Shown here: piece by piece, positions 11,018-20,887 of the stretch
Position numbering within the stretch: the stretch's first letter is position 1
Layout: the number at the start of each line of letters is the position of its first letter
Source of the DNA: Ignavibacteriae bacterium HGW-Ignavibacteriae-4
Lineage (GTDB): Bacteria; Bacteroidota; Ignavibacteria; Kapaibacteriales; UBA2268
Direction: 5' to 3'
Length of the DNA stretch: 64,000 nucleotides
NCBI GenBank assembly: GCA_002839765.1
Contig: PGYR01000008.1
Location: 2,541 to 66,540, forward strand
Made by a program: the position numbers and the translations under genes
The notes under the pieces: model-generated
Seen by the model: only the letters and a program-made list of their open reading frames with translations
The model's database searches: none
What the model was told of the DNA's origin: nothing

Positions 11018-12116
11018 TTAAACTTCTCCACTTAATAATACAGCTTTTATCAATTCATCTAGGTCGCCATCCATCACAGACGTAATATCTGATGTTTTGT
11101 ATTCTACTCTTGCGTCATTCACCATAGTATATGGTTGGAATACATACGAGCGAATTTGGCTCCCCCATTCTATTTTTTTCTTAGCCCCTTCTATCTTGGC
11201 TTTCTCAGCATCTTCTTCTTCTGTTCTCTTTTTGTAAAGAGCAGATTTTAGCATTTTCATGGCTAGTTCTCTATTCGCTAATTGCGAACGTTCTTTCTGA
11301 CAAGCTACAACTATGCCCGATGGTTTATGTCTAAGTCTAACAGCTGTTTCTACTTTGTTGACGTTCTGTCCACCTTTACCGCCAGCTCTGAAAGTGTCTA
11401 ATTCTACATCTGCTGGATTTATCTCAATCTCAACATCATCTTCTACTTCTGGATATATATATACACTAGCAAATGAGGTGTGTCTTCGTGCATTCGAATC
11501 GAAAGGGGAGATACGAACCAATCTATGGACACCATTTTCAGCTTTCAAATACCCATAAGCATAGTTACCTTCAATCTGGATAGTAGCCGACTTTAGACCT
11601 GCTACCTCGCCTTCTTGCTCGTCGAGCAATCTAGTAGTAAATCCTTTTCTTTCTGCCCAACGTAAATACATTCTTAATAACATATCCGCCCAATCGCAAG
11701 CCTCTGTACCGCCCGCACCAGCGTTAACTGTTAGTATCGCGTTGCTCGGGTCATCTTTACCAGAAAGCATATTGATTACTTCTAACTCATTTACGGTTTT
11801 TATCGCTTTGTTTAGCTCCTTATCTATATCATCAGATAAGCTCTGATCTGATAGTTCATCAGCTAAACTTACTATTGCTTCTGTGTCATCAACTGTACTA
11901 ATAGCAGCATAGTAAGTATCTATCCAATTCTTTCTTTCGGATAGTTGCTTCATTACCCGCTTTGCATTATTTGAATCATCCCAAAACCCAGGAGTCTCGG
12001 ACATATCTTTTAACTCTTTAAGCTCACGCTCTTTGACCTCTACGTCAAAGATACCTCCTTAAATGCTCCACTTTCTCTTTTAGCTTACTTAACTCTTCTT
12101 TTTGAACATCAAACAT
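11018..12116 (-). CDS. prfB: Peptide chain release factor 2, expressed via programmed +1 frameshift
   Basis: GGQ and SPF motifs. Upstream [26 protein letters not shown] from ATG 12116 ends AGG AGG TAT CTT TGA C; the +1 frame continues into the 11018..12004 ORF. Confidence 0.97.
12044..12059 (-). other. prfB programmed +1 ribosomal frameshift site
   Basis: Internal SD AGGAGG (12054-12059) plus slippery CTT-TGA-C (12044-12050). Confidence 0.95.
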
Positions 12117-12385: not shown

Positions 12386-14968
12386 ATGGAAGGAAATTTT
12401 TCAAGTAGGGTCAACGACGTAATCAAGCTAAGTAGAGAGGAAGCTCTCCGACTAGGACACGACTACATCGGCACCGAACACCTTCTGCTAGGAATTATCA
12501 GAGATGGCGAAGGAATCGCAGTTAAAGTCCTTAGAAATTTGGATGTTGATTTGTATAAGCTAAAAAAAGGTATAGAGGAGACTGTCAGACCTAGCGGTTC
12601 GACTATTACTTCGGGGAATATACCACTGACTAAACAAGCAGAAAAAGTTTTAAAAATTACATATTTGGAAGCTAAACTGTATAAATCTCAAAAGATTGGT
12701 ACTGAGCATTTACTTCTTTCTTTACTAAGAGATGAAGAAAATATAGCTGCTCAAATATTAGAGCAATTTAATGTTAATTACGATTTGGTAAGAAACGAAC
12801 TAGATAGCATTATCAAAGGTGAGAAACCTACTGATAGTGGTGAATCCTCGTACATACCTCGTAAAACAGAGAAAACTGCTCAATCGAAACAAAAAGAAAG
12901 AGCTAAAACTCCGGTACTAGATAACTTTGGTCGCGATTTGACTAAAATGGCTGCTGAAAAGAAGCTAGATCCAGTAATAGGAAGACAAAAAGAAATCGAA
13001 AGATTATCTCAAGTTCTATCTCGAAGAAAGAAAAACAACCCTGTACTAATCGGTGAACCTGGTGTTGGTAAAACAGCGATTGTAGAAGGACTTGCACTTC
13101 GTATAGTTCAGAAAAAAGTATCTCGTGCATTGTACGAGAAGCGAATAATAACTCTCGATATCGCTTCGCTTGTGGCTGGTACTAAGTACCGTGGCCAATT
13201 CGAAGAGAGAATGAAAGCAGTCATCAATGAGCTTGAAAAAGCTGATGACGTTATATTATTCATCGATGAGATACATACTATAGTCGGTGCCGGTGGAGCT
13301 TCTGGCTCGCTTGATGCATCGAATATGTTCAAACCGGCTTTGGCTAGGGGAGACATACAATGTATTGGTGCTACTACTCTCGATGAGTATAGAGAAAACA
13401 TAGAGAAAGACGGTGCTCTAGAGCGTAGGTTCCAGAAAATATTAGTAGAGCCACCTTCTGCACTTGAAACTCTCAAAATAATCGAAAAAATAAAGGATGC
13501 TTACGAGAAGCATCACCACGTTATCTACACTGATGAAGCAATTCAGACAGCTGTTCGCTTAGCAGATAGATATATCTCGGAAAGAAATTTCCCAGATAAA
13601 GCTATTGACATAATAGATGAAGCTGGAGCGAAAGTCCATCTGGAGAATATTGACGTTCCTATTAGTGTTATCAATCTTGAAAAAGAAATCAAGAAGATAA
13701 ATGAAGAAAAGAATATAGTAGTCAAAAAGCAAAATTTCGAAGAAGCTGCTAGATTACGTGACTTAGAGAAAAACAAGCAACAAGAACTAGTTACTGCCAA
13801 AGAAGAATGGGAAAAACAATCAGATAAACTGGTATTCCCAGTAACTGAAACAGACATTTCGGATGTAGTTTCTATGATGACTGGTGTTCCAGTTTCAAGA
13901 GTTGCAGAATCTGAGTCTATCAAACTTCTCTCTCTAGCAGATGAGCTAAAAGGCACAGTAGTAGGACAAGAGCAAGCTATTGAGCATTTAACAAGAGCTA
14001 TCAGACGTGCTAGAGCTGGACTAAAAGATCCTAAGAGACCAATCGGGTCATTTATGTTCTTAGGCCCAACGGGTGTAGGTAAAACTGAGCTTGCAAAATC
14101 GCTATCGAAAGCTATGTTTGACACTGAAGATGCAATTATCCGTATAGATATGAGTGAGTATATGGAGAAATTCTCTGTATCTAGACTAGTCGGTTCGCCT
14201 CCGGGTTACGTTGGCTATGAGCAAGGTGGTCAGCTAACTGAGAAAGTTAGAAGAAAGCCATACTCTATCATATTGCTTGATGAGATAGAAAAAGCTCATC
14301 CGGATGTTTATAATATCTTACTTCAAGTATTTGATGATGGTATATTGACTGATGGATTGGGAAGAAAGATTGACTTCAAAAATACTATTATAATAATGAC
14401 TTCTAACGCTGGTACTAAGGATTTGAAACCGGGCGGTAGAATTGGGTTCACTGATATAGAATCAGAAAACGATTACGAAGAGCTAAAAAGTTCAATCGAA
14501 GAGTCAACTAAATCTATATTTAGTCCAGAGTTCATCAATAGAATAGATGATTTCATTATCTTCCGTAAGCTGACTAAAGAAAACATCAAGGAAATTATTG
14601 ATATCCAATTGAAGTTAGTACAAGAAAGAATGAACCTGCACCAAATGACTTTAGAGATAAACGATGCAGCGAAAGATTTCATTGTTGAGAAAGGATTCGA
14701 CGAGAAGTATGGTGCTAGACCACTGAAACGTGCGCTCCAAAAGTACGTGGAAGACGAGCTAGCAGATGAGATACTGAAAGGACATCTTTTGAACGGTGCT
14801 GTAGTCAAAGTTCAATACGACAAGAAAAACGAGAAGCTGAAATTCAAATTCGTTGGTGGAGAAAAGAAAATCGACGAAAAAGAATTGGTAAAGCCGAAAA
14901 TAGATATCGATGACGAGATAGACGACAACCCAGAAATCAACATTGACGAGGACGTTAGCAACAACTAA
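12386..14968 (+). CDS. clpC: ATP-dependent Clp protease ATP-binding subunit ClpC
   Basis: Two Clp-N repeats (GTEHLLL); Walker A GEPGVGKT and GPTGVGKT; UVR-like AARLRD middle domain; IGF loop. Confidence 0.95.
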
Positions 14969-14994
14969 TGTCTGATTGAGATAAGAATAAAATC

Positions 14995-15023
14995 AAAGCC
15001 AAGTGGAAACACTTGGCTTTTTT
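14995..15023. terminator. Intrinsic (likely bidirectional) terminator after clpC
   Basis: aaagccaagtg-gaaa-cacttggcttt followed by a T run. Confidence 0.85.
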
Positions 15024-15041
15024 GGTTTTGAATACAGTATT

Positions 15042-16793
15042 TTATTCCTCTAAATTAAGTTTATAATTTCCAAGTTTTAATAATGCTGTGATAAGCAAAA
15101 GCATAGTACTAGCTAAATAATTTTTTGTTTGATAAAAACAATGAGCAACATTATTTCTTAAATTCATCCCATCAGATGTAAAAAGAAATTTAAAAAATGC
15201 AATGTCATCTTCAGGAATAATTTCATTAAGCTTGACGTTATCTAATAACTTTTCGAATGATATTCTCTCTTGAGTAGCATTCTCTTTAATCTCAATAGTT
15301 TGTGCACCAATATGTTTTGAAAATTCTCTTAGTAGTCCTTCAAATTTTATTACCAATGAATCTATTGGTAGTATATAGCCTATACTACTATTTTTATTTT
15401 GTTTTATATCAATTTCAATTTGGTTGAAAAAGCTAAAAAGTGAAGGAGATAATAATTCAATCCAGTTAAAACCTTCCACTTGACCTTCAGTATTTACGGA
15501 TGTAAAATCTTGACCATACCAAGAATTCTCTTTTAAGAAATCAATTATTGTGTTGAGAGTCACTTTTCCTTTTTTGAAACCCTTTGAAATTATCATCCAA
15601 AGATAGTTTATAGAAAAACTTTGAATATAAATTGAATAAGGATCAATTCCACTTTTCTTATTGCCTGTGACATTCTTATTAATATCAAAATTCATTACAC
15701 TTACAAGATCTAGTGCAACTGGTCGTATTTCTTCATACAGTACTGCTGCATTAGGGAATATTTTATCACAAAGTATTAAGTATGTATATATTCCCTTGCT
15801 ATCATATTTATCTATTATTTCATCAGTTTCTTTATTAAATAAATCCCAAATTTTTTGGAATTCTTCATCTGTATTTTCAACTTCTAATAATTCGAAATTT
15901 AAGTTCTTTTTAGCCTTTTCAATTAATACTGTGACATCTTCAATTTTTTCTTTATTACCAGCTTTTTTATACTGTACCAATGCTTTTAAATAAAAGTCGT
16001 GGACAATAAAGCTTCCTTTATGTTCTTCTGATTTAGTGATATAAAATTCAGCAAGTCTATTATGAAATGGTTTAGGGGGAACACTTATTTTTTGACTTAG
16101 AATAATTTGTAAACCTAAGTATTCTTCTAATAATTCAGGATAGGTTTTATTTTCAATTATGCATTTAGAATATTCAAAAAAAGTGTTAAAATTAGAAATA
16201 TCTATTTTTTTTCCTTTCTTGACAATGAAATTCACTAATGAATATTCTGTATAGCTATTTATAATATACTTACCTAAATGAGAAATTAGAAATTGTATTA
16301 CCTCATCTTTTTTAAAGTTTGAATATTGTGAAAGAATAAAAAGATTTTGAAAATAACTTCCAAAGGATTGATTTGATAAACTATCCTGATAATTAAATGA
16401 TACAGTTTTTAGAAAAGCTAAATAGTTATCTATTGCCAAGGTAGCGAAAGAGCGATGTTTGTGTTCACTATTCCAAAGTAGATGATTGTATTTTGCTTTG
16501 TATTTGGGATTTACTGTTTTCTCTGCGCGTATTTTTATATAGTCTAAATCGTCATTAAATAAATCTAAATTTGGATAGGATGATCTGTCTATATCATGAT
16601 ATTTGGGATTTGAATTTCCATCTCTAAATATGTAATCGTTAAAAAATAACTCATAAGAACAATATTTTTTTAGATCAGCATCCTCAATTTTATCCCTTAG
16701 TTCTAATAATGAATTTGAGATACTAATATCAATGATCAAACTATTATCACTTTCGAGATAATTATAATATTCGTCTAAGTTTTCAAACTTCAT
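15042..16793 (-). CDS. DUF4209-like protein with C-terminal HEPN-like RxxxxH motif
   Basis: C-terminal KFEGLLRE..FFKFLFTSDGMNLRNNVAHCF; helical N-terminal region; very AT-rich. Confidence 0.7.
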   Translation of the reverse strand: MKFENLDEYYNYLESDNSLIIDISISNSLLELRDKIEDADLKKYCSYELFFNDYIFRDGNSNPKYHDIDRSSYPNLDLFNDDLDYIKIRAEKTVNPKYKAKYNHLLWNSEHKHRSFATLAIDNYLAFLKTVSFNYQDSLSNQSFGSYFQNLFILSQYSNFKKDEVIQFLISHLGKYIINSYTEYSLVNFIVKKGKKIDISNFNTFFEYSKCIIENKTYPELLEEYLGLQIILSQKISVPPKPFHNRLAEFYITKSEEHKGSFIVHDFYLKALVQYKKAGNKEKIEDVTVLIEKAKKNLNFELLEVENTDEEFQKIWDLFNKETDEIIDKYDSKGIYTYLILCDKIFPNAAVLYEEIRPVALDLVSVMNFDINKNVTGNKKSGIDPYSIYIQSFSINYLWMIISKGFKKGKVTLNTIIDFLKENSWYGQDFTSVNTEGQVEGFNWIELLSPSLFSFFNQIEIDIKQNKNSSIGYILPIDSLVIKFEGLLREFSKHIGAQTIEIKENATQERISFEKLLDNVKLNEIIPEDDIAFFKFLFTSDGMNLRNNVAHCFYQTKNYLASTMLLLITALLKLGNYKLNLEE

Positions 16794-16823
16794 TCTTACT
16801 CATTTATTTTGATTTATTGTTGT

Positions 16824-18083
16824 TTATCTTTTCATAACTTTTTGCAGACTTTCAATTTTTGTATTCAACTCGTCAAAAGTTAAGATTTCAACATCTCTAC
16901 TATTACTTCTATATAATTCAAAACTATATCTTTGTTCGTTGGAAAGTGTTTTTAAAGTTCCAACTAATACTACACATTTTGAATTAAATGTTTCGACAGC
17001 TGTTTTACTTTTTCCTTTTAGTGCCCAAAATTCTTTCTGAAAGTTGTCTCTTTGGTTTAGAACTTGATTTATACTTCCTGTTAAGTCTTTTCCAACACTA
17101 AAAACGTCAGAACCTCGATAGGTTGTTTTTTCCATTAGTTTTGTCTTATGAGTCTTAATTTCTAAAAATGAAACATTATCACTTAAACTATTCTGTATCA
17201 GAAAGTCGTTAAACTTTCCATTTTTATTGTCGATTGTTTTTCCTCCTACATAAGCTTCGTTTTGATATAAAATTACAGGTTGAGCAAATATTGATGAAAA
17301 TATCCAACTATTGTCTTTTAAAAACAATTGCCATAACTTTTCAAGACTTTCACTACTTGTTTTAAGGGACATTAATTCCTTGTATCTTTTCAATGTCTGC
17401 TGAATATATCTATTATCAACAATCTCTTTAGTCTTTGCTAATGCATCTTTGGTAAAAAAATCTTGTGTAATCGAAAGTTTATCAAATAAATCTTTAATCG
17501 CACTTTTATCAGAATCTGAAAATTCATCTATTGAATTCCCCCAACTAGATAAAGATACTGCCAAAGCGTTTGGAATAAATGTTTTTTCAGGTTTTGTTAT
17601 AACATTCGGAAATAGAGAATATAGGTTTAATTTCAATACAAAATTGACTTCTTCTTTGTTCTTTTTGAAAATGACTGTAAAAGCATTTAAAAGATCTTTT
17701 AGACTTTTTTCATTCAAGAATAGTTTTTTATTTGATAAATCTAATTCAACTTTTCCAGTCTTATTTATTATTACTTCTTCAATTTCATAATTATCATTAA
17801 TATGATATGCGAATGGATTGAGTGTTTTCGTAAATCCCCAACCAAAATTTACAGACTTCACAACACCAACAGGTAATTTCCCATTAAAGCCATTATATAT
17901 AAATTTTTTAATAGTTTTATACTTCTGACCACCTTCAAAACCTCTTGGATAGTGAATGATACGGTCATTATTTTTATATATCTCACTTGAAATTTGCTTT
18001 ATACTATTTTCGGTATCATAAAAAAACAATACTTTTTTAGTTGGTAATTCACTTTCTAATTTTTCACCTTTAAAAACTGTCAT
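16824..18083 (-). CDS. sduA: Shedu anti-phage nuclease (DUF4263 / SduA-like)
   Basis: EKLWQLFLKDNSWIF, AYVGGK, DFL..LEIKT PD-(D/E)xK core, INQV, FELYR..ILTFDEL. Confidence 0.82.
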   Translation of the reverse strand: MTVFKGEKLESELPTKKVLFFYDTENSIKQISSEIYKNNDRIIHYPRGFEGGQKYKTIKKFIYNGFNGKLPVGVVKSVNFGWGFTKTLNPFAYHINDNYEIEEVIINKTGKVELDLSNKKLFLNEKSLKDLLNAFTVIFKKNKEEVNFVLKLNLYSLFPNVITKPEKTFIPNALAVSLSSWGNSIDEFSDSDKSAIKDLFDKLSITQDFFTKDALAKTKEIVDNRYIQQTLKRYKELMSLKTSSESLEKLWQLFLKDNSWIFSSIFAQPVILYQNEAYVGGKTIDNKNGKFNDFLIQNSLSDNVSFLEIKTHKTKLMEKTTYRGSDVFSVGKDLTGSINQVLNQRDNFQKEFWALKGKSKTAVETFNSKCVVLVGTLKTLSNEQRYSFELYRSNSRDVEILTFDELNTKIESLQKVMKR

Positions 18084-18202
18084 AATCTTCTAATATTGAT
18101 TTAAGTAAAATTTATGTACTTTCCGAACCCAAAATACAAAAAAATCTCTCCTTACATCAACTAAAAAACAAAAAGGACCGCTCAATAATATAAAAAACAT
18201 TA

Positions 18203-18263
18203 TTTGTTGTTAATATATTAGTAAAAGAGATAAACAAATTAGTTTGTTGTTAAAGTATTAACA
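18203..18263. promoter_or_regulatory. Tandem 18-bp direct repeats (possible operator pair) upstream of the Shedu operon
   Basis: tttgttgttaatatatta (18203-18220) and tttgttgttaaagtatta (18243-18260), 40 bp apart; the second overlaps the palindrome TGTTAA-N4-TTAACA. Confidence 0.35.
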
Positions 18264-18325
18264 TCAAAAGTCGTTGTCGCTCATAATTATGAAAATGTGA
18301 GCAACAAAGGTTAAGGGATGATACC

Positions 18326-19084
18326 CTACTTCACATTAATCAAAAACTCAGATGCTACTTTCTGGCAAAGTTCAACGTCGATAGCATTCTCCCAAAATAA
18401 TATTACTTGTTCTCCATTCGCATCTTTTATTCTGTAATCCGTTCGTAGATTAGATGGTACTTCACCTGTGAATTTACCAACAAAAAGACAAGCATTTAGG
18501 AAAGCTCCTAGATCGTTTTGATGGCTTCCGTCTGGCATATATAACCCAATATCTGGTCTAATCGTTCGAGCTAGTTTCCAAGCTTCTCCTACCATAATAA
18601 GATCACATTTGTTTTCTTTGGCTGCTTCTACGTATGTACTAGTTATATAATCTTGAATATGTTGGTATTTTTGACGCGACCATGTAACGTATAAATAAGG
18701 TGATGCACCAGATTCTTTAACAAGGTCGCAAAGCAATTTCGAATACTTAAGAAAGTCATTCTTATTCTCAATCGTCTCTAAACTATGACCTTGTATTACT
18801 ACTTTATCGTATAAGCCGTTACAGATAATATCTTTTGTTTTTAGTTCCTTTTCTCCATTCCAATGGTTGCTTAGAGTAGCTCCACCTGCTGTACTTTTTG
18901 AAGTTATTAATTTTACTTTAGTACTGTCCGATATCAGAGATGCCAGATGAGGCATATTAGAAATCGATGTATAGCTATTGCCAACAAATAATATACGTAA
19001 AGTGTCTTTTCCAGACTGGGCGATACCTTCACTATATATACCGAAAATGAAGAGAATAATTAGTAGATTTTTGATGGATTTCAT
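18326..19084 (-). CDS. Secreted SGNH/GDSL-like hydrolase (DUF4886-like)
   Basis: Signal peptide; ILFVGNSYT block I; DGSH catalytic motif. Confidence 0.78.
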   Translation of the reverse strand: MKSIKNLLIILFIFGIYSEGIAQSGKDTLRILFVGNSYTSISNMPHLASLISDSTKVKLITSKSTAGGATLSNHWNGEKELKTKDIICNGLYDKVVIQGHSLETIENKNDFLKYSKLLCDLVKESGASPYLYVTWSRQKYQHIQDYITSTYVEAAKENKCDLIMVGEAWKLARTIRPDIGLYMPDGSHQNDLGAFLNACLFVGKFTGEVPSNLRTDYRIKDANGEQVILFWENAIDVELCQKVASEFLINVK

Positions 19085-19166
19085 TAATTTTTTTAAATAA
19101 AGCTAGTGATAAAATATAAATTCAAACTACAAAAAATAATATTTAAATTAATCGCCATATTCCAAC

Positions 19167-19204
19167 AAAAACAAAAGGGCTGCTCATTTATTTGAACAGC
19201 CCTT
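19167..19204 (-). terminator. Intrinsic terminator after osmC
   Basis: Minus strand aagggctgttca-aataaa-tgagcagccctt followed by a U-rich tail. Confidence 0.75.
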
Positions 19205-19230
19205 CGGTATATTTAGTGTTTAATCTTACG

Positions 19231-19647
19231 TTACTTAAGTGTAGCAGTTAATGTAATATCCGCGTTTAATAATTTTGATATAGGGCAAACAGCTTTCGCG
19301 TTGTTCGCTATTTCTTCAAACGTAGATTGATCAATACCTTTAATTGATCCTACTAAATCTAAATTGATACTAGTAACACTTCCATCTTCAAAATTAACTT
19401 TTGCGTCAGTAGTTAGGTCTTTATCATTGAATCCTTTTTCGTCTAATAAAAAACTCAATTGCATAGTAAAACAACCAGAAAGTGCTGCGCCAATAAGCTC
19501 TTCTGGATTAGTGCCCGCTGCATTTTCGAAACGTGTTGAGAATGAATAGTGTGAATCTTTTAGTACAGAGCTATCTGTTGTTAATGTTCCTGTTCCTTCT
19601 TTACCAGTACCTTTCCAATTTGCGTTTGCGTTTCTTGAGAATTTCAT
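19231..19647 (-). CDS. osmC: OsmC peroxiredoxin
   Basis: YSFSTRFE..GTNPEELIGAA..GCF and CPISK cysteines. Confidence 0.92.
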   Translation of the reverse strand: MKFSRNANANWKGTGKEGTGTLTTDSSVLKDSHYSFSTRFENAAGTNPEELIGAALSGCFTMQLSFLLDEKGFNDKDLTTDAKVNFEDGSVTSINLDLVGSIKGIDQSTFEEIANNAKAVCPISKLLNADITLTATLK

Positions 19648-19746
19648 TTTTTTATCCTTTAATATTGAGTGGTTAATGTCGTGAAATAAACGAAATGATA
19701 AGGAATTTGTTGTTAGTAGGGGAGGGAATGATATTAGACTTTGTTC

Positions 19747-20142
19747 TTATTTACTTTCTTCATTATTCAATCTCAAAATCTCTTGAATAATATTATCTTT
19801 GCTTTATGAATAATTCCAAGAGTTCCTGTTATTTTTAAATTCAATTTATTAGCTAATTTTCTGGCTTTCATATCATCAAGTAACAATAAAACATCGTCAT
19901 ATTCTTTTGCTAATGCAATTGCACTTGCCTCTCCTATTATTTACCTGAGTTTCAAGGAGCATTTGATATTTTTTATCATTAACTGATTCTACTTTAATCC
20001 AATTAGGAAGCTCTTCTCCGTATTCTTCAGCTATCTCTGGAGTGGTTACAAGTTCTATATAAAGTTTCTGCAACAGGTCAAGTTGTTCAATTTTCTGAAG
20101 GATTATTAATGTACTTGTATCTGATATTACAATTTTAGGCAT
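19747..20142 (-). pseudogene. DUF3368 PIN-domain toxin pseudogene
   Basis: MPKIVISDTS.. frameshifts near 19935-19944. Another frame continues GEASAIALA..LLDDMKARKLA..ITGTLGII. A further break near 19800 precedes DNIIQEILRLNNE. Confidence 0.82.
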
Positions 20143-20362
20143 TTTCTATATCTGATTGTAGGTCTGTAACTGAACTGCTAAAAATGGAAACGCCATATTT
20201 CCCAAGTAATTCTATAAATGTTCTTTTTGTTATTCCTACCATTTTAGCGGCTTGACCTAGGGAGAGTTTTTTTTCCTCATACAATTTTGATGCAATCATC
20301 ATTGAAAAATCGTAATCAGACATTTCGACACTATCAGGTATATTCAAATGTAATGTTCTCAT
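20135..20362 (-). CDS. UPF0175 family antitoxin-like protein
   Basis: KLYEEKKLSLGQAAKMVGI..FIELLGKYGV; overlaps the DUF3368 start. Confidence 0.85.
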   Translation of the reverse strand: MRTLHLNIPDSVEMSDYDFSMMIASKLYEEKKLSLGQAAKMVGITKRTFIELLGKYGVSIFSSSVTDLQSDIENA

Positions 20363-20488
20363 AGTATAATTCTATTTTATATAAGTTATAATATATTAAC
20401 GTAAAGCCTTTGAAATCTATTGTTTTCTAATAATTATTTGTGCTTTATATTCTTCAATTTACAATAAATATACTTAATATTAAAACTT

Positions 20489-20887
20489 TTAGAACTCCCT
20501 AATCACATTCCTTACTACACCCCAGATGGAGAATTCATCGAGGTCGGTGATTCGTATGTCTTCGTAGTCTTCGTTTTCAGAGTGGAGAATTGTTCTATCG
20601 TCTGTGAATAATATTCTTTTCACGAATGGTTTCCCGTTCAATGCACCTACGACAATTGATTCATTCGAGATTGGGTAGTTGCTATTCACAAGTACTTTAT
20701 CCCCCGAATTAATTCCGATATTTATCATCGAATTACCCGAAACTTCAACTAGAAATACATAACCATCATCGCCTAGAATCTCTTCGTTTAGGTCGAATTT
20801 CGTACGGCTCAATCTTTTCAGAAAGTCCGTGTTATTAAGTATTTTAGAAGAGTTGTTGCGTTTTTGCAACCTCGAATACAATGTCAT
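20489..20887 (-). CDS. S24 peptidase, UmuD-like
   Basis: DLNEEI..FLVEVSGNSM..GINSGDKVLV..VKR..ENEDY..IWGVV; no LexA DNA-binding domain. Confidence 0.8.
   Translation of the reverse strand: MTLYSRLQKRNNSSKILNNTDFLKRLSRTKFDLNEEILGDDGYVFLVEVSGNSMINIGINSGDKVLVNSNYPISNESIVVGALNGKPFVKRILFTDDRTILHSENEDYEDIRITDLDEFSIWGVVRNVIREF

Follow-up and report, generated by a model that had tools for sequence, protein, structure and literature searches.

Within the 64,000-nucleotide stretch of contig PGYR01000008.1 from Ignavibacteriae bacterium HGW-Ignavibacteriae-4 analysed here (the window), two adjacent genes occupy a 3.3-kb foreign insert of low GC content. Gene 1 (sduA) encodes a Shedu-type nuclease, and gene 2, downstream on the same strand, encodes a protein ending in a DUF4209 domain of the HEPN superfamily. 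An earlier, sequence-only reading of the window had proposed that the pair may form a co-transcribed, layered two-gene defence system. Our data suggest instead that gene 1 and gene 2 are, in all likelihood, two independent single-gene anti-phage modules, stacked by chance in one insert and probably co-transcribed here. We read them as independent because their homologues almost never co-occur.

The survey of homologues was made from both sides. On the DUF4209 side, 80 loci from species-representative genomes were taken together with flanks of as much as 8 kb in either direction; in 71 the upstream flank reached 2 kb or more. None contained an SduA-type open reading frame (ORF), whether sought with phmmer, with tblastn (best chance match at an expectation value, E, of 0.6) or with a broad SduA hidden Markov model (HMM) built from relatives down to 26% identity. 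A conserved partner of any kind was likewise not seen in these 80 loci. Within three genes of the DUF4209 gene, the largest neighbour cluster was an Eco57I/MmeI-type enzyme (9 loci), followed by a C5 methylase (5) and by an OLD-type ATPase, an integrase, a relaxase and an HTH protein (4 each). Scanning 146 of the 149 immediate neighbours gave 131 Pfam families, none present more than five times, among which ResIII, Eco57I and MmeI_Mtase were the commonest. The neighbourhood of the family is one of restriction-modification (R-M) and mobile-element genes.

On the Shedu side, 86 loci (80 metagenomic and 6 genomic) were examined, in 47 of which the downstream sequence reaches 1.8 kb or more; a DUF4209-family ORF was found in two. 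In one (L106), an SduA 68% identical to that of the window is followed 263 nucleotides (nt) downstream, on the same strand, by a DUF4209-family gene whose product is 27% identical to gene 2; in the other (L131), the DUF4209-family gene lies 2.7 kb from sduA on the opposite strand. The L105 locus, where a different downstream gene of 209 codons is found, has an SduA that shares 97% identity with the one in L106; the SduA proteins of L100 and L107, both with other genes downstream, share 91% with it. At the locus with the SduA closest to the window's (L090, 85%), a DUF3024 gene comes next. The 46 same-strand downstream neighbours of this SduA clade are heterogeneous (Abi_C in 4, Methylase_S in 3, PLDc_2 plus HA in 3, no family in more than 4), and each neighbour cluster is confined to at most 6 of the 86 loci, with no conserved partner on either side. 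None of nine viral-contig loci, where relatives are few or distant, held both genes. Among 400 other genomes sampled evenly from the same phylum, this kind of SduA occurred in 6 and DUF4209 in 9, with no overlap; in one further genome (G401) both are present on one contig, ~36 kb apart. The sequence-only reading had made its two-gene proposal depend on whether the homologues co-occur. They almost never do, and the proposal is not borne out. This unlinked pairing matches the published picture of Shedu, which Gu et al. (bioRxiv 10.1101/2023.08.10.552793) describe as a system of one gene, frequently located inside R-M or BREX systems. In the literature found under DUF4209, PDC-S39 or DUF7380, no Shedu-DUF4209 system was described.

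Judged from its family matches, gene 1 is a canonical, ordinary Type 1 Shedu SduA. A stretch of ~245 residues precedes the SduA_C domain, which matches Pfam PF14082 at residues 246-406 (E 2.9e-24; 86.5 bits against a cut-off of 27). The PADLOC SduA model PDLC00384 covers residues 68-418 (E 1.5e-69), and the solved SduA of B. cereus (PDB 8TI8) matches residues 240-417 (E 2.1e-37) with its motifs aligned. Active-site motifs I-IV of the B. cereus enzyme are given by Gu et al. as E204, D249, E264/K266 and Q295. In the 8TI8 alignment they pair with E248, D293, E308, K310 and Q340 of gene 1, none of which varies among the 16 clade members compared; the EIK of gene 1 is encoded at 17154-17162. The complete Shedu/DUF4263 PD-(D/E)xK signature noted earlier is therefore confirmed by Pfam, PADLOC, the solved structure and all five motif residues. 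Gene 1 has 370 relatives; the 120 listed are full-length and 61-87% identical, N-terminal region included, and several of these Bacteroidota proteins are named 'Shedu immune nuclease family protein' by their sources. In NCBIfam, no family was found for gene 1 or gene 2 beyond a chance row.

Gene 2 is best described, from the same kind of comparison, as a PDC-S39-like protein of DUF7380-DUF4209 architecture, from a divergent Bacteroidota clade. It matches Pfam DUF4209 (PF13910) at residues 493-573 with 35.1 bits (cut-off 22.3) and DUF7380 (PF24098) at residues 63-131 with 22.6 bits, below the cut-off of 27; many of its close homologues carry PF24098. The Pfam SduA_C and DUF4209 matches are family-level assignments, well beyond chance. 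In PADLOC, gene 2 matched PDC-S39 alone (E 1.2e-12 and 5.7e-12) and only over residues 480-564. Of ten relatives checked, nine match the PDC-S39 models co-linearly in their N-terminal parts, their C-terminal parts or both, and the DUF4209 protein of L131 matches over positions 76-581 of 595 (E 3.7e-25). PDC-S39 is one of 145 phage defence candidates proposed by guilt-by-embedding (Payne et al., bioRxiv 10.1101/2024.01.29.577857). DUF4209 itself has been described as the C6orf70 family of the HEPN superfamily, with a conserved Rx4-6H motif, TPR fusions and R-M related operons (PMC3710099). As had been noted from the sequence, the 583-residue protein ends in RNNVAH (residues 546-551, encoded at 15141-15158), 32 residues from the C-terminus. 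A word search found 17 homologues, and all 17 keep R546, N547, N548 and H551 unchanged; the motif is also kept in a 54-row alignment, a count that is circular in that most of the loci were retrieved with a motif-containing pattern. An exhaustive search of 1.84 billion representatives placed 698 in the family at E<=1e-3, 470 at <=1e-10 and 186 at <=1e-30, mostly of 580-625 residues and aligned end to end, and within the 120 homologues listed the Bacteroidota clade shows 52-72% identity. DUF4209 is patchily distributed, being found in the 9 sampled genomes mentioned above and in neither of the two same-genus genomes searched. The gene of the closest homologue in a genome (L023, 68%) shares 4 nt with the end of one for an Eco57I/MmeI-type enzyme.

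Structure prediction is consistent with a HEPN domain at the C-terminus of gene 2. The full-length model is nearly all-helical, with a predicted local distance difference test score (pLDDT) of 80.6, and Foldseek returned for it only weak solenoid/TPR rows (E>=0.013). An Atlas model of residues 1-378 resembles clusters with DUF7380/DUF4209 members, at template modelling (TM) scores of 0.76-0.78. The C-terminal 205 residues, folded with 54 sequences, reached a pLDDT of 90.6 and a predicted TM score of 0.87. This C-terminal model gave no Foldseek match at E<=0.001. When solved structures were searched by sequence with gene 2, nothing above chance level came up (E 0.017), and the C-terminal profile found no PDB entry by hmmsearch. 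When the C-terminal domain was compared by VIA-align with 48,161 chains, HEPN proteins led the ranking. Thirteen of the top 20 are HEPN proteins, seven by entry title and the rest from HEPN families listed in the literature (RnlA, LsoA, AbiA, Csm6, SO_3166). The best row, 1jog, has a Z of 8.2 and a root-mean-square deviation of 3.5 over 120 aligned residues, followed by an AMPylated HEPN toxin (8xdj, 7.9), the AF_0298 HEPN (7.8), RnlA (7.8), SO_3166 (7.7), a HEPN-MNT toxin (7ae2, 7.4), AbiA (6.8), LsoA (6.6), the sacsin HEPN (6.5) and Csm6 (6.4). This is moderate, model-based evidence for the fold. A homodimer of the HEPN domain was also predicted, with a score of 0.76 against 0.00 for the best of three controls; among solved proteins, 20 of 30 one-chain pairs and 1 of 23 single chains reach the dimer mark. 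Contacts agreed in at least 88% between runs, at a partner pLDDT of at least 75. The predicted interface comprises fragment residues 171-175, which include A550 and H551 of RNNVAH, and fragment residues 100-111, which hold the invariant D478, S479, K483, E485, G486 and R489. Taken together, fold, motif and family assignment are sufficient for the HEPN assignment, and the earlier HEPN reading of gene 2 is upheld by motif, predicted fold and literature. The suggestion that the DUF4209 protein could be an unrecognised stand-alone defence gene holds in part. A stand-alone gene fits the survey, but the family is not unrecognised, having been placed among the HEPN proteins in 2013 (PMC3710099) and catalogued as PDC-S39.

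The two genes are compositional outliers in the window. Gene 1 has a GC content of 0.273 and gene 2 of 0.260, whereas the window as a whole stands at 0.340 and the flanking genes at 0.345-0.395; at third codon positions the two genes have 0.186 and 0.178. The ORFs thus agree with the earlier description of two co-oriented, AT-rich genes (GC 0.26-0.27) separated by 30 bp. The convergent clpC (12386-14968, + strand) runs toward gene 2 and shares with it a hairpin, so that the placement of the pair directly against the clpC terminator also stands. This hairpin, read on both strands, is the sole terminator-like one in a scan of 14700-18500, which found none in the 30-nt gap between the genes. A single transcript is probable because the gap is only 30 nt, no hairpin separates the genes and a single hairpin follows gene 2; the arrangement of the DNA thus suggests that gene 1 and gene 2 are probably co-transcribed in this genome. 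A promoter scan was uninformative, with 23 promoter-like sites observed and 22.4 in shuffles. Since the site count matches shuffles, the hexamers upstream of sduA mark a position only and are no evidence of function. Among the DNA runs of one groundwater study, one is the probable source of this DNA; in a second, low-depth identical fragments cover both genes, which is uninformative on transcripts or insert variants.

Rather than belonging to a large defence island, the insert is a small slot for variable cargo, set among housekeeping genes (prfB, clpC, glmS). The clpC terminator borders it on one side and a DUF4886-like gene on the other. The genome G081, of the same genus, has a clpC 94% identical to that of the window, and its flanks match the window at 12386-15021 and 18326-19730; its slot is filled by 1050 nt of different DNA where the window has 3304 nt. 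The homology runs to just past the clpC hairpin, which is kept, and resumes exactly at the stop codon of a gene of 252 codons; this gene, upstream of sduA in the window, is thus also present in G081, which has no SduA. The slot of G081 (L175, 2906-3947) contains two co-oriented small genes, of 157 and 169 codons, without a Pfam family. In a further same-genus genome, G137, clpC is followed by a gene for an SLFN_AlbA_2 protein (435 residues; L178, 451-1758), a HigB/HTH pair and a TonB-type receptor gene. Neither SduA nor DUF4209 was found in G081 or G137. Across the genus, cargo of the defence and toxin-antitoxin types gathers downstream of clpC. No direct repeats flanking the insert and no integrase within it were found.

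Several observations weigh against reading the genes as independent modules. The co-oriented 30-nt spacing with no hairpin between the genes and their near-identical, odd composition fit joint acquisition and one transcript. L106 is a second, independent juxtaposition of Shedu and DUF4209, and many metagenome loci are short, leaving the absence of DUF4209 beside SduA assessable in only about half of them. HEPN-type genes also recur behind this SduA clade. Besides the DUF4209 genes here and in L106, four loci (L084, L091, L092 and L093), whose SduA is 76% identical to that of the window, have a gene for a 273-residue Abi_C protein 45-46 nt downstream (for example 3026-3847 in L093). It is 92-100% identical among the four, which marks them as one lineage. 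Abi_C is presumably an AbiJ-type HEPN domain; the motif RNNKSFAH was seen directly in the protein. As regards gene 2 as a defence gene of the HEPN type, the fold match is middling, in that a Z of up to 8.2 can be reached by a helical-bundle arrangement alone and Foldseek came back empty. Solved HEPN dimers exist, and the dimer pass may mirror likeness to them and is not proof. For DUF4209, a defence role has candidate status only.

These observations could be taken to mean that the pair is a true layered system, in which Shedu would cleave the phage DNA and a coupled RNase backup of the abortive-infection kind would come from the downstream HEPN protein, co-regulated with SduA or in contact with it. 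The spacing and shared composition would fit, as would L106, with its very divergent DUF4209 protein, and the Abi_C genes (Rx6H) directly behind the same SduA clade. Partners of Shedu are possible in principle, as the two-component KELShedu described in PMC12577705 shows. That partner, however, is an upstream double-stranded DNA binder and not a HEPN protein, the two families are conserved at full length as stand-alone genes in hundreds of contexts, and a near-identical SduA (L105) is followed by another gene. With the co-occurrence counts given above on both sides, in viral contigs and in the sampled genomes, we consider a layered system highly improbable. A complex of SduA with the DUF4209 protein was also considered and dropped, as conservation gave no reason to claim binding. 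A looser form of coupling would be that this Shedu clade repeatedly gains a downstream HEPN-type RNase gene from different families, the partner being interchangeable and the juxtaposition selected for synergy or sequential action of DNase and RNase. HEPN domains are among the commonest domains in defence neighbourhoods, and because of this we give this idea very little credence. Alternatively, gene 2 might have no part in phage defence and serve as an RNase in RNA processing or stress, or else be an addiction or selfish element that belongs to mobile DNA and is carried in variable regions. Integrases and relaxases are indeed among its neighbours (4 of 80 loci each), both DUF4209 and PDC-S39, the latter as one of 145 entries in the catalogue of Payne et al., are at the candidate stage only, and the eukaryotic relatives (C6orf70) are predicted in PMC3710099 to act in RNA degradation associated with the endoplasmic reticulum. 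Against this stand the patchy distribution of the family (9 of 400 genomes and neither same-genus genome), R-M enzymes as its commonest neighbours, with the L023 homologue overlapping an Eco57I/MmeI-type gene, and the Shedu gene that adjoins it here. In addition, HEC-08, a HEPN protein of another family, defends through its Rx4-6H histidine (Payne et al.). A role outside defence is in our view quite unlikely, and two independent anti-phage modules are the explanation that we retain.

As two such modules, the proteins might work as follows. SduA would be a homotetrameric PD-(D/E)xK DNA nuclease that its N-terminal and linker region keeps inactive until infection; it would then cut phage DNA, as the B. 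cereus enzyme does. The N-terminal region has no solved relative, so that this B. cereus-like action is extrapolated solely from homology in the nuclease domain. In gene 2, the TPR-like helical N-terminal region is the presumed sensor or autoinhibitor, and the C-terminal HEPN domains are predicted to pair as a homodimer, in which two Rx4H motifs would form the RNase site. On a phage cue, the protein may cleave RNA in the manner of abortive infection, probably with growth arrest. An antitoxin-like conserved neighbour of DUF4209 genes was not seen in the surveyed loci. The nuclease and RNase activities, their triggers, the defence role of gene 2 and the co-transcription of the pair are what we infer for this locus.

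Table 1. Features of the insert with sduA and the DUF4209 gene and of its borders (positions in the window; domain limits in amino acids, aa).
Feature	Position	Strand	Basis
Gene 1, sduA, Type 1 Shedu nuclease (predicted), 419 aa	16824-18083	-	ORF; PADLOC SduA; relatives
SduA_C PD-(D/E)xK nuclease domain, aa 246-406	16866-17348	-	Pfam PF14082; PDB 8TI8; motif list
Intergenic gap, 30 nt, without terminator-like hairpin	16794-16823	-	Hairpin scan
Gene 2, 583 aa, DUF7380-type helical N-terminal region and C-terminal DUF4209 (HEPN), PDC-S39-like	15042-16793	-	Pfam, PADLOC, homologues, Atlas
HEPN-like helical domain of gene 2, ~aa 441-583, including RNNVAH	15045-15473	-	Domain model, VIA-align, motif
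Hairpin, 11-bp stem, between convergent clpC and gene 2, likely bidirectional terminator	14995-15020	.	Kept in G081
Upstream region of sduA, 242 nt, promoter-like hexamers and two 31-nt direct repeats	18084-18325	-	Position only
Variable slot, 3.3 kb, insert with both genes	15022-18325	.	Comparison with G081 flanks

The direct repeats upstream of sduA span 18190-18220 and 18230-18260, 40 nt apart, and have TTAACAACAAA cores on the gene strand. A AACAACAA stretch resembling them is found in the 30-nt gap before gene 2. The TTAACAACAAA and AACAACAA stretches may be a regulator site or may have arisen by chance in AT-rich DNA.

Two further neighbourhoods were noted among the surveyed loci. At L101, L102 and L104, a gene for a 518-residue PLD-like and helicase-associated (HA) protein lies 12 nt downstream of an SduA 68% identical to that of the window (for example 1339-2895 in L102), a recurrent yet lineage-restricted neighbour of SduA. 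On another contig, L011 and L012, ~24 kb apart, are two copies of a cassette of a C5 methylase, an NgoPII-type restriction enzyme and a DUF4209-family protein with identical search scores, in which the DUF4209 gene appears to have been duplicated along with a type II R-M system.

Elsewhere in the window, the classic site for programmed +1 frameshifting in release factor 2 lies at 12004-12115, upstream of the prfB ORF (11018-12004, - strand). There, a short frame that opens with ATG leads to AGGAGG TAT CTT TGA C, and the 328-codon ORF goes on in the +1 frame. At 19897-20362 (- strand), the gene of a 75-residue UPF0175 protein (E 2.2e-18) overlaps an ORF of 81 codons without a Pfam family, in a toxin-antitoxin-like layout. 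The DNA at ~19731-20494 has no match in G081 and represents a second small variable insert.

What is new here is a well-conserved Bacteroidota clade added to a catalogued candidate family, and not a new kind of system. The locus is a compact natural construct of 3.3 kb, which places an established defence that targets DNA and a candidate one that targets RNA behind one likely promoter region. A useful outcome would be the demonstration of defence by a DUF4209 protein and of infection sensing by its helical N-terminus.

Comparison with known systems places each gene separately. Gene 1 resembles the SduA of B. cereus B4264 (PDB 8TI8/8TI9), as described by Gu et al., in its DUF4263 nuclease domain, motifs I-IV, Type 1 architecture and variable neighbours. 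Unlike the nuclease domain, its N-terminal 240 residues have no sequence match in the B. cereus protein and are conserved only in a Bacteroidota-rich clade. KELShedu (Zhang et al. 2025, PMC12577705) likewise has a DUF4263 nuclease and is reported to work with a second gene product. Its partner KELA, however, binds double-stranded DNA and is encoded upstream, whereas gene 2 is a downstream HEPN gene that is not conserved with the nuclease; no conserved partner gene for a protein that binds double-stranded DNA accompanies this SduA clade. Gene 2 shares with the C6orf70/DUF4209 family of Anantharaman et al. (2013, PMC3710099) the Pfam DUF4209 match above cut-off and the conserved Rx4H. In what it says of the family, that account is a sequence analysis; it reports neither an experiment with a bacterial member nor any connection to Shedu. 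With PDC-S39, as outlined by Payne et al., gene 2 has in common a length of ~600 residues, a helical N-terminal region, a C-terminal DUF4209 HEPN domain, a single-gene form and an R-M neighbourhood; it differs in belonging to a divergent clade that the models match only at residues 480-564. HEC-08 (DUF3644) has no detectable sequence relation to gene 2, for which PADLOC gave only PDC-S39. In the description by Payne et al., it is a single-gene HEPN protein embedded in defence systems that loses defence on mutation of the Rx4-6H histidine, and it is the nearest tested functional analogue of gene 2.

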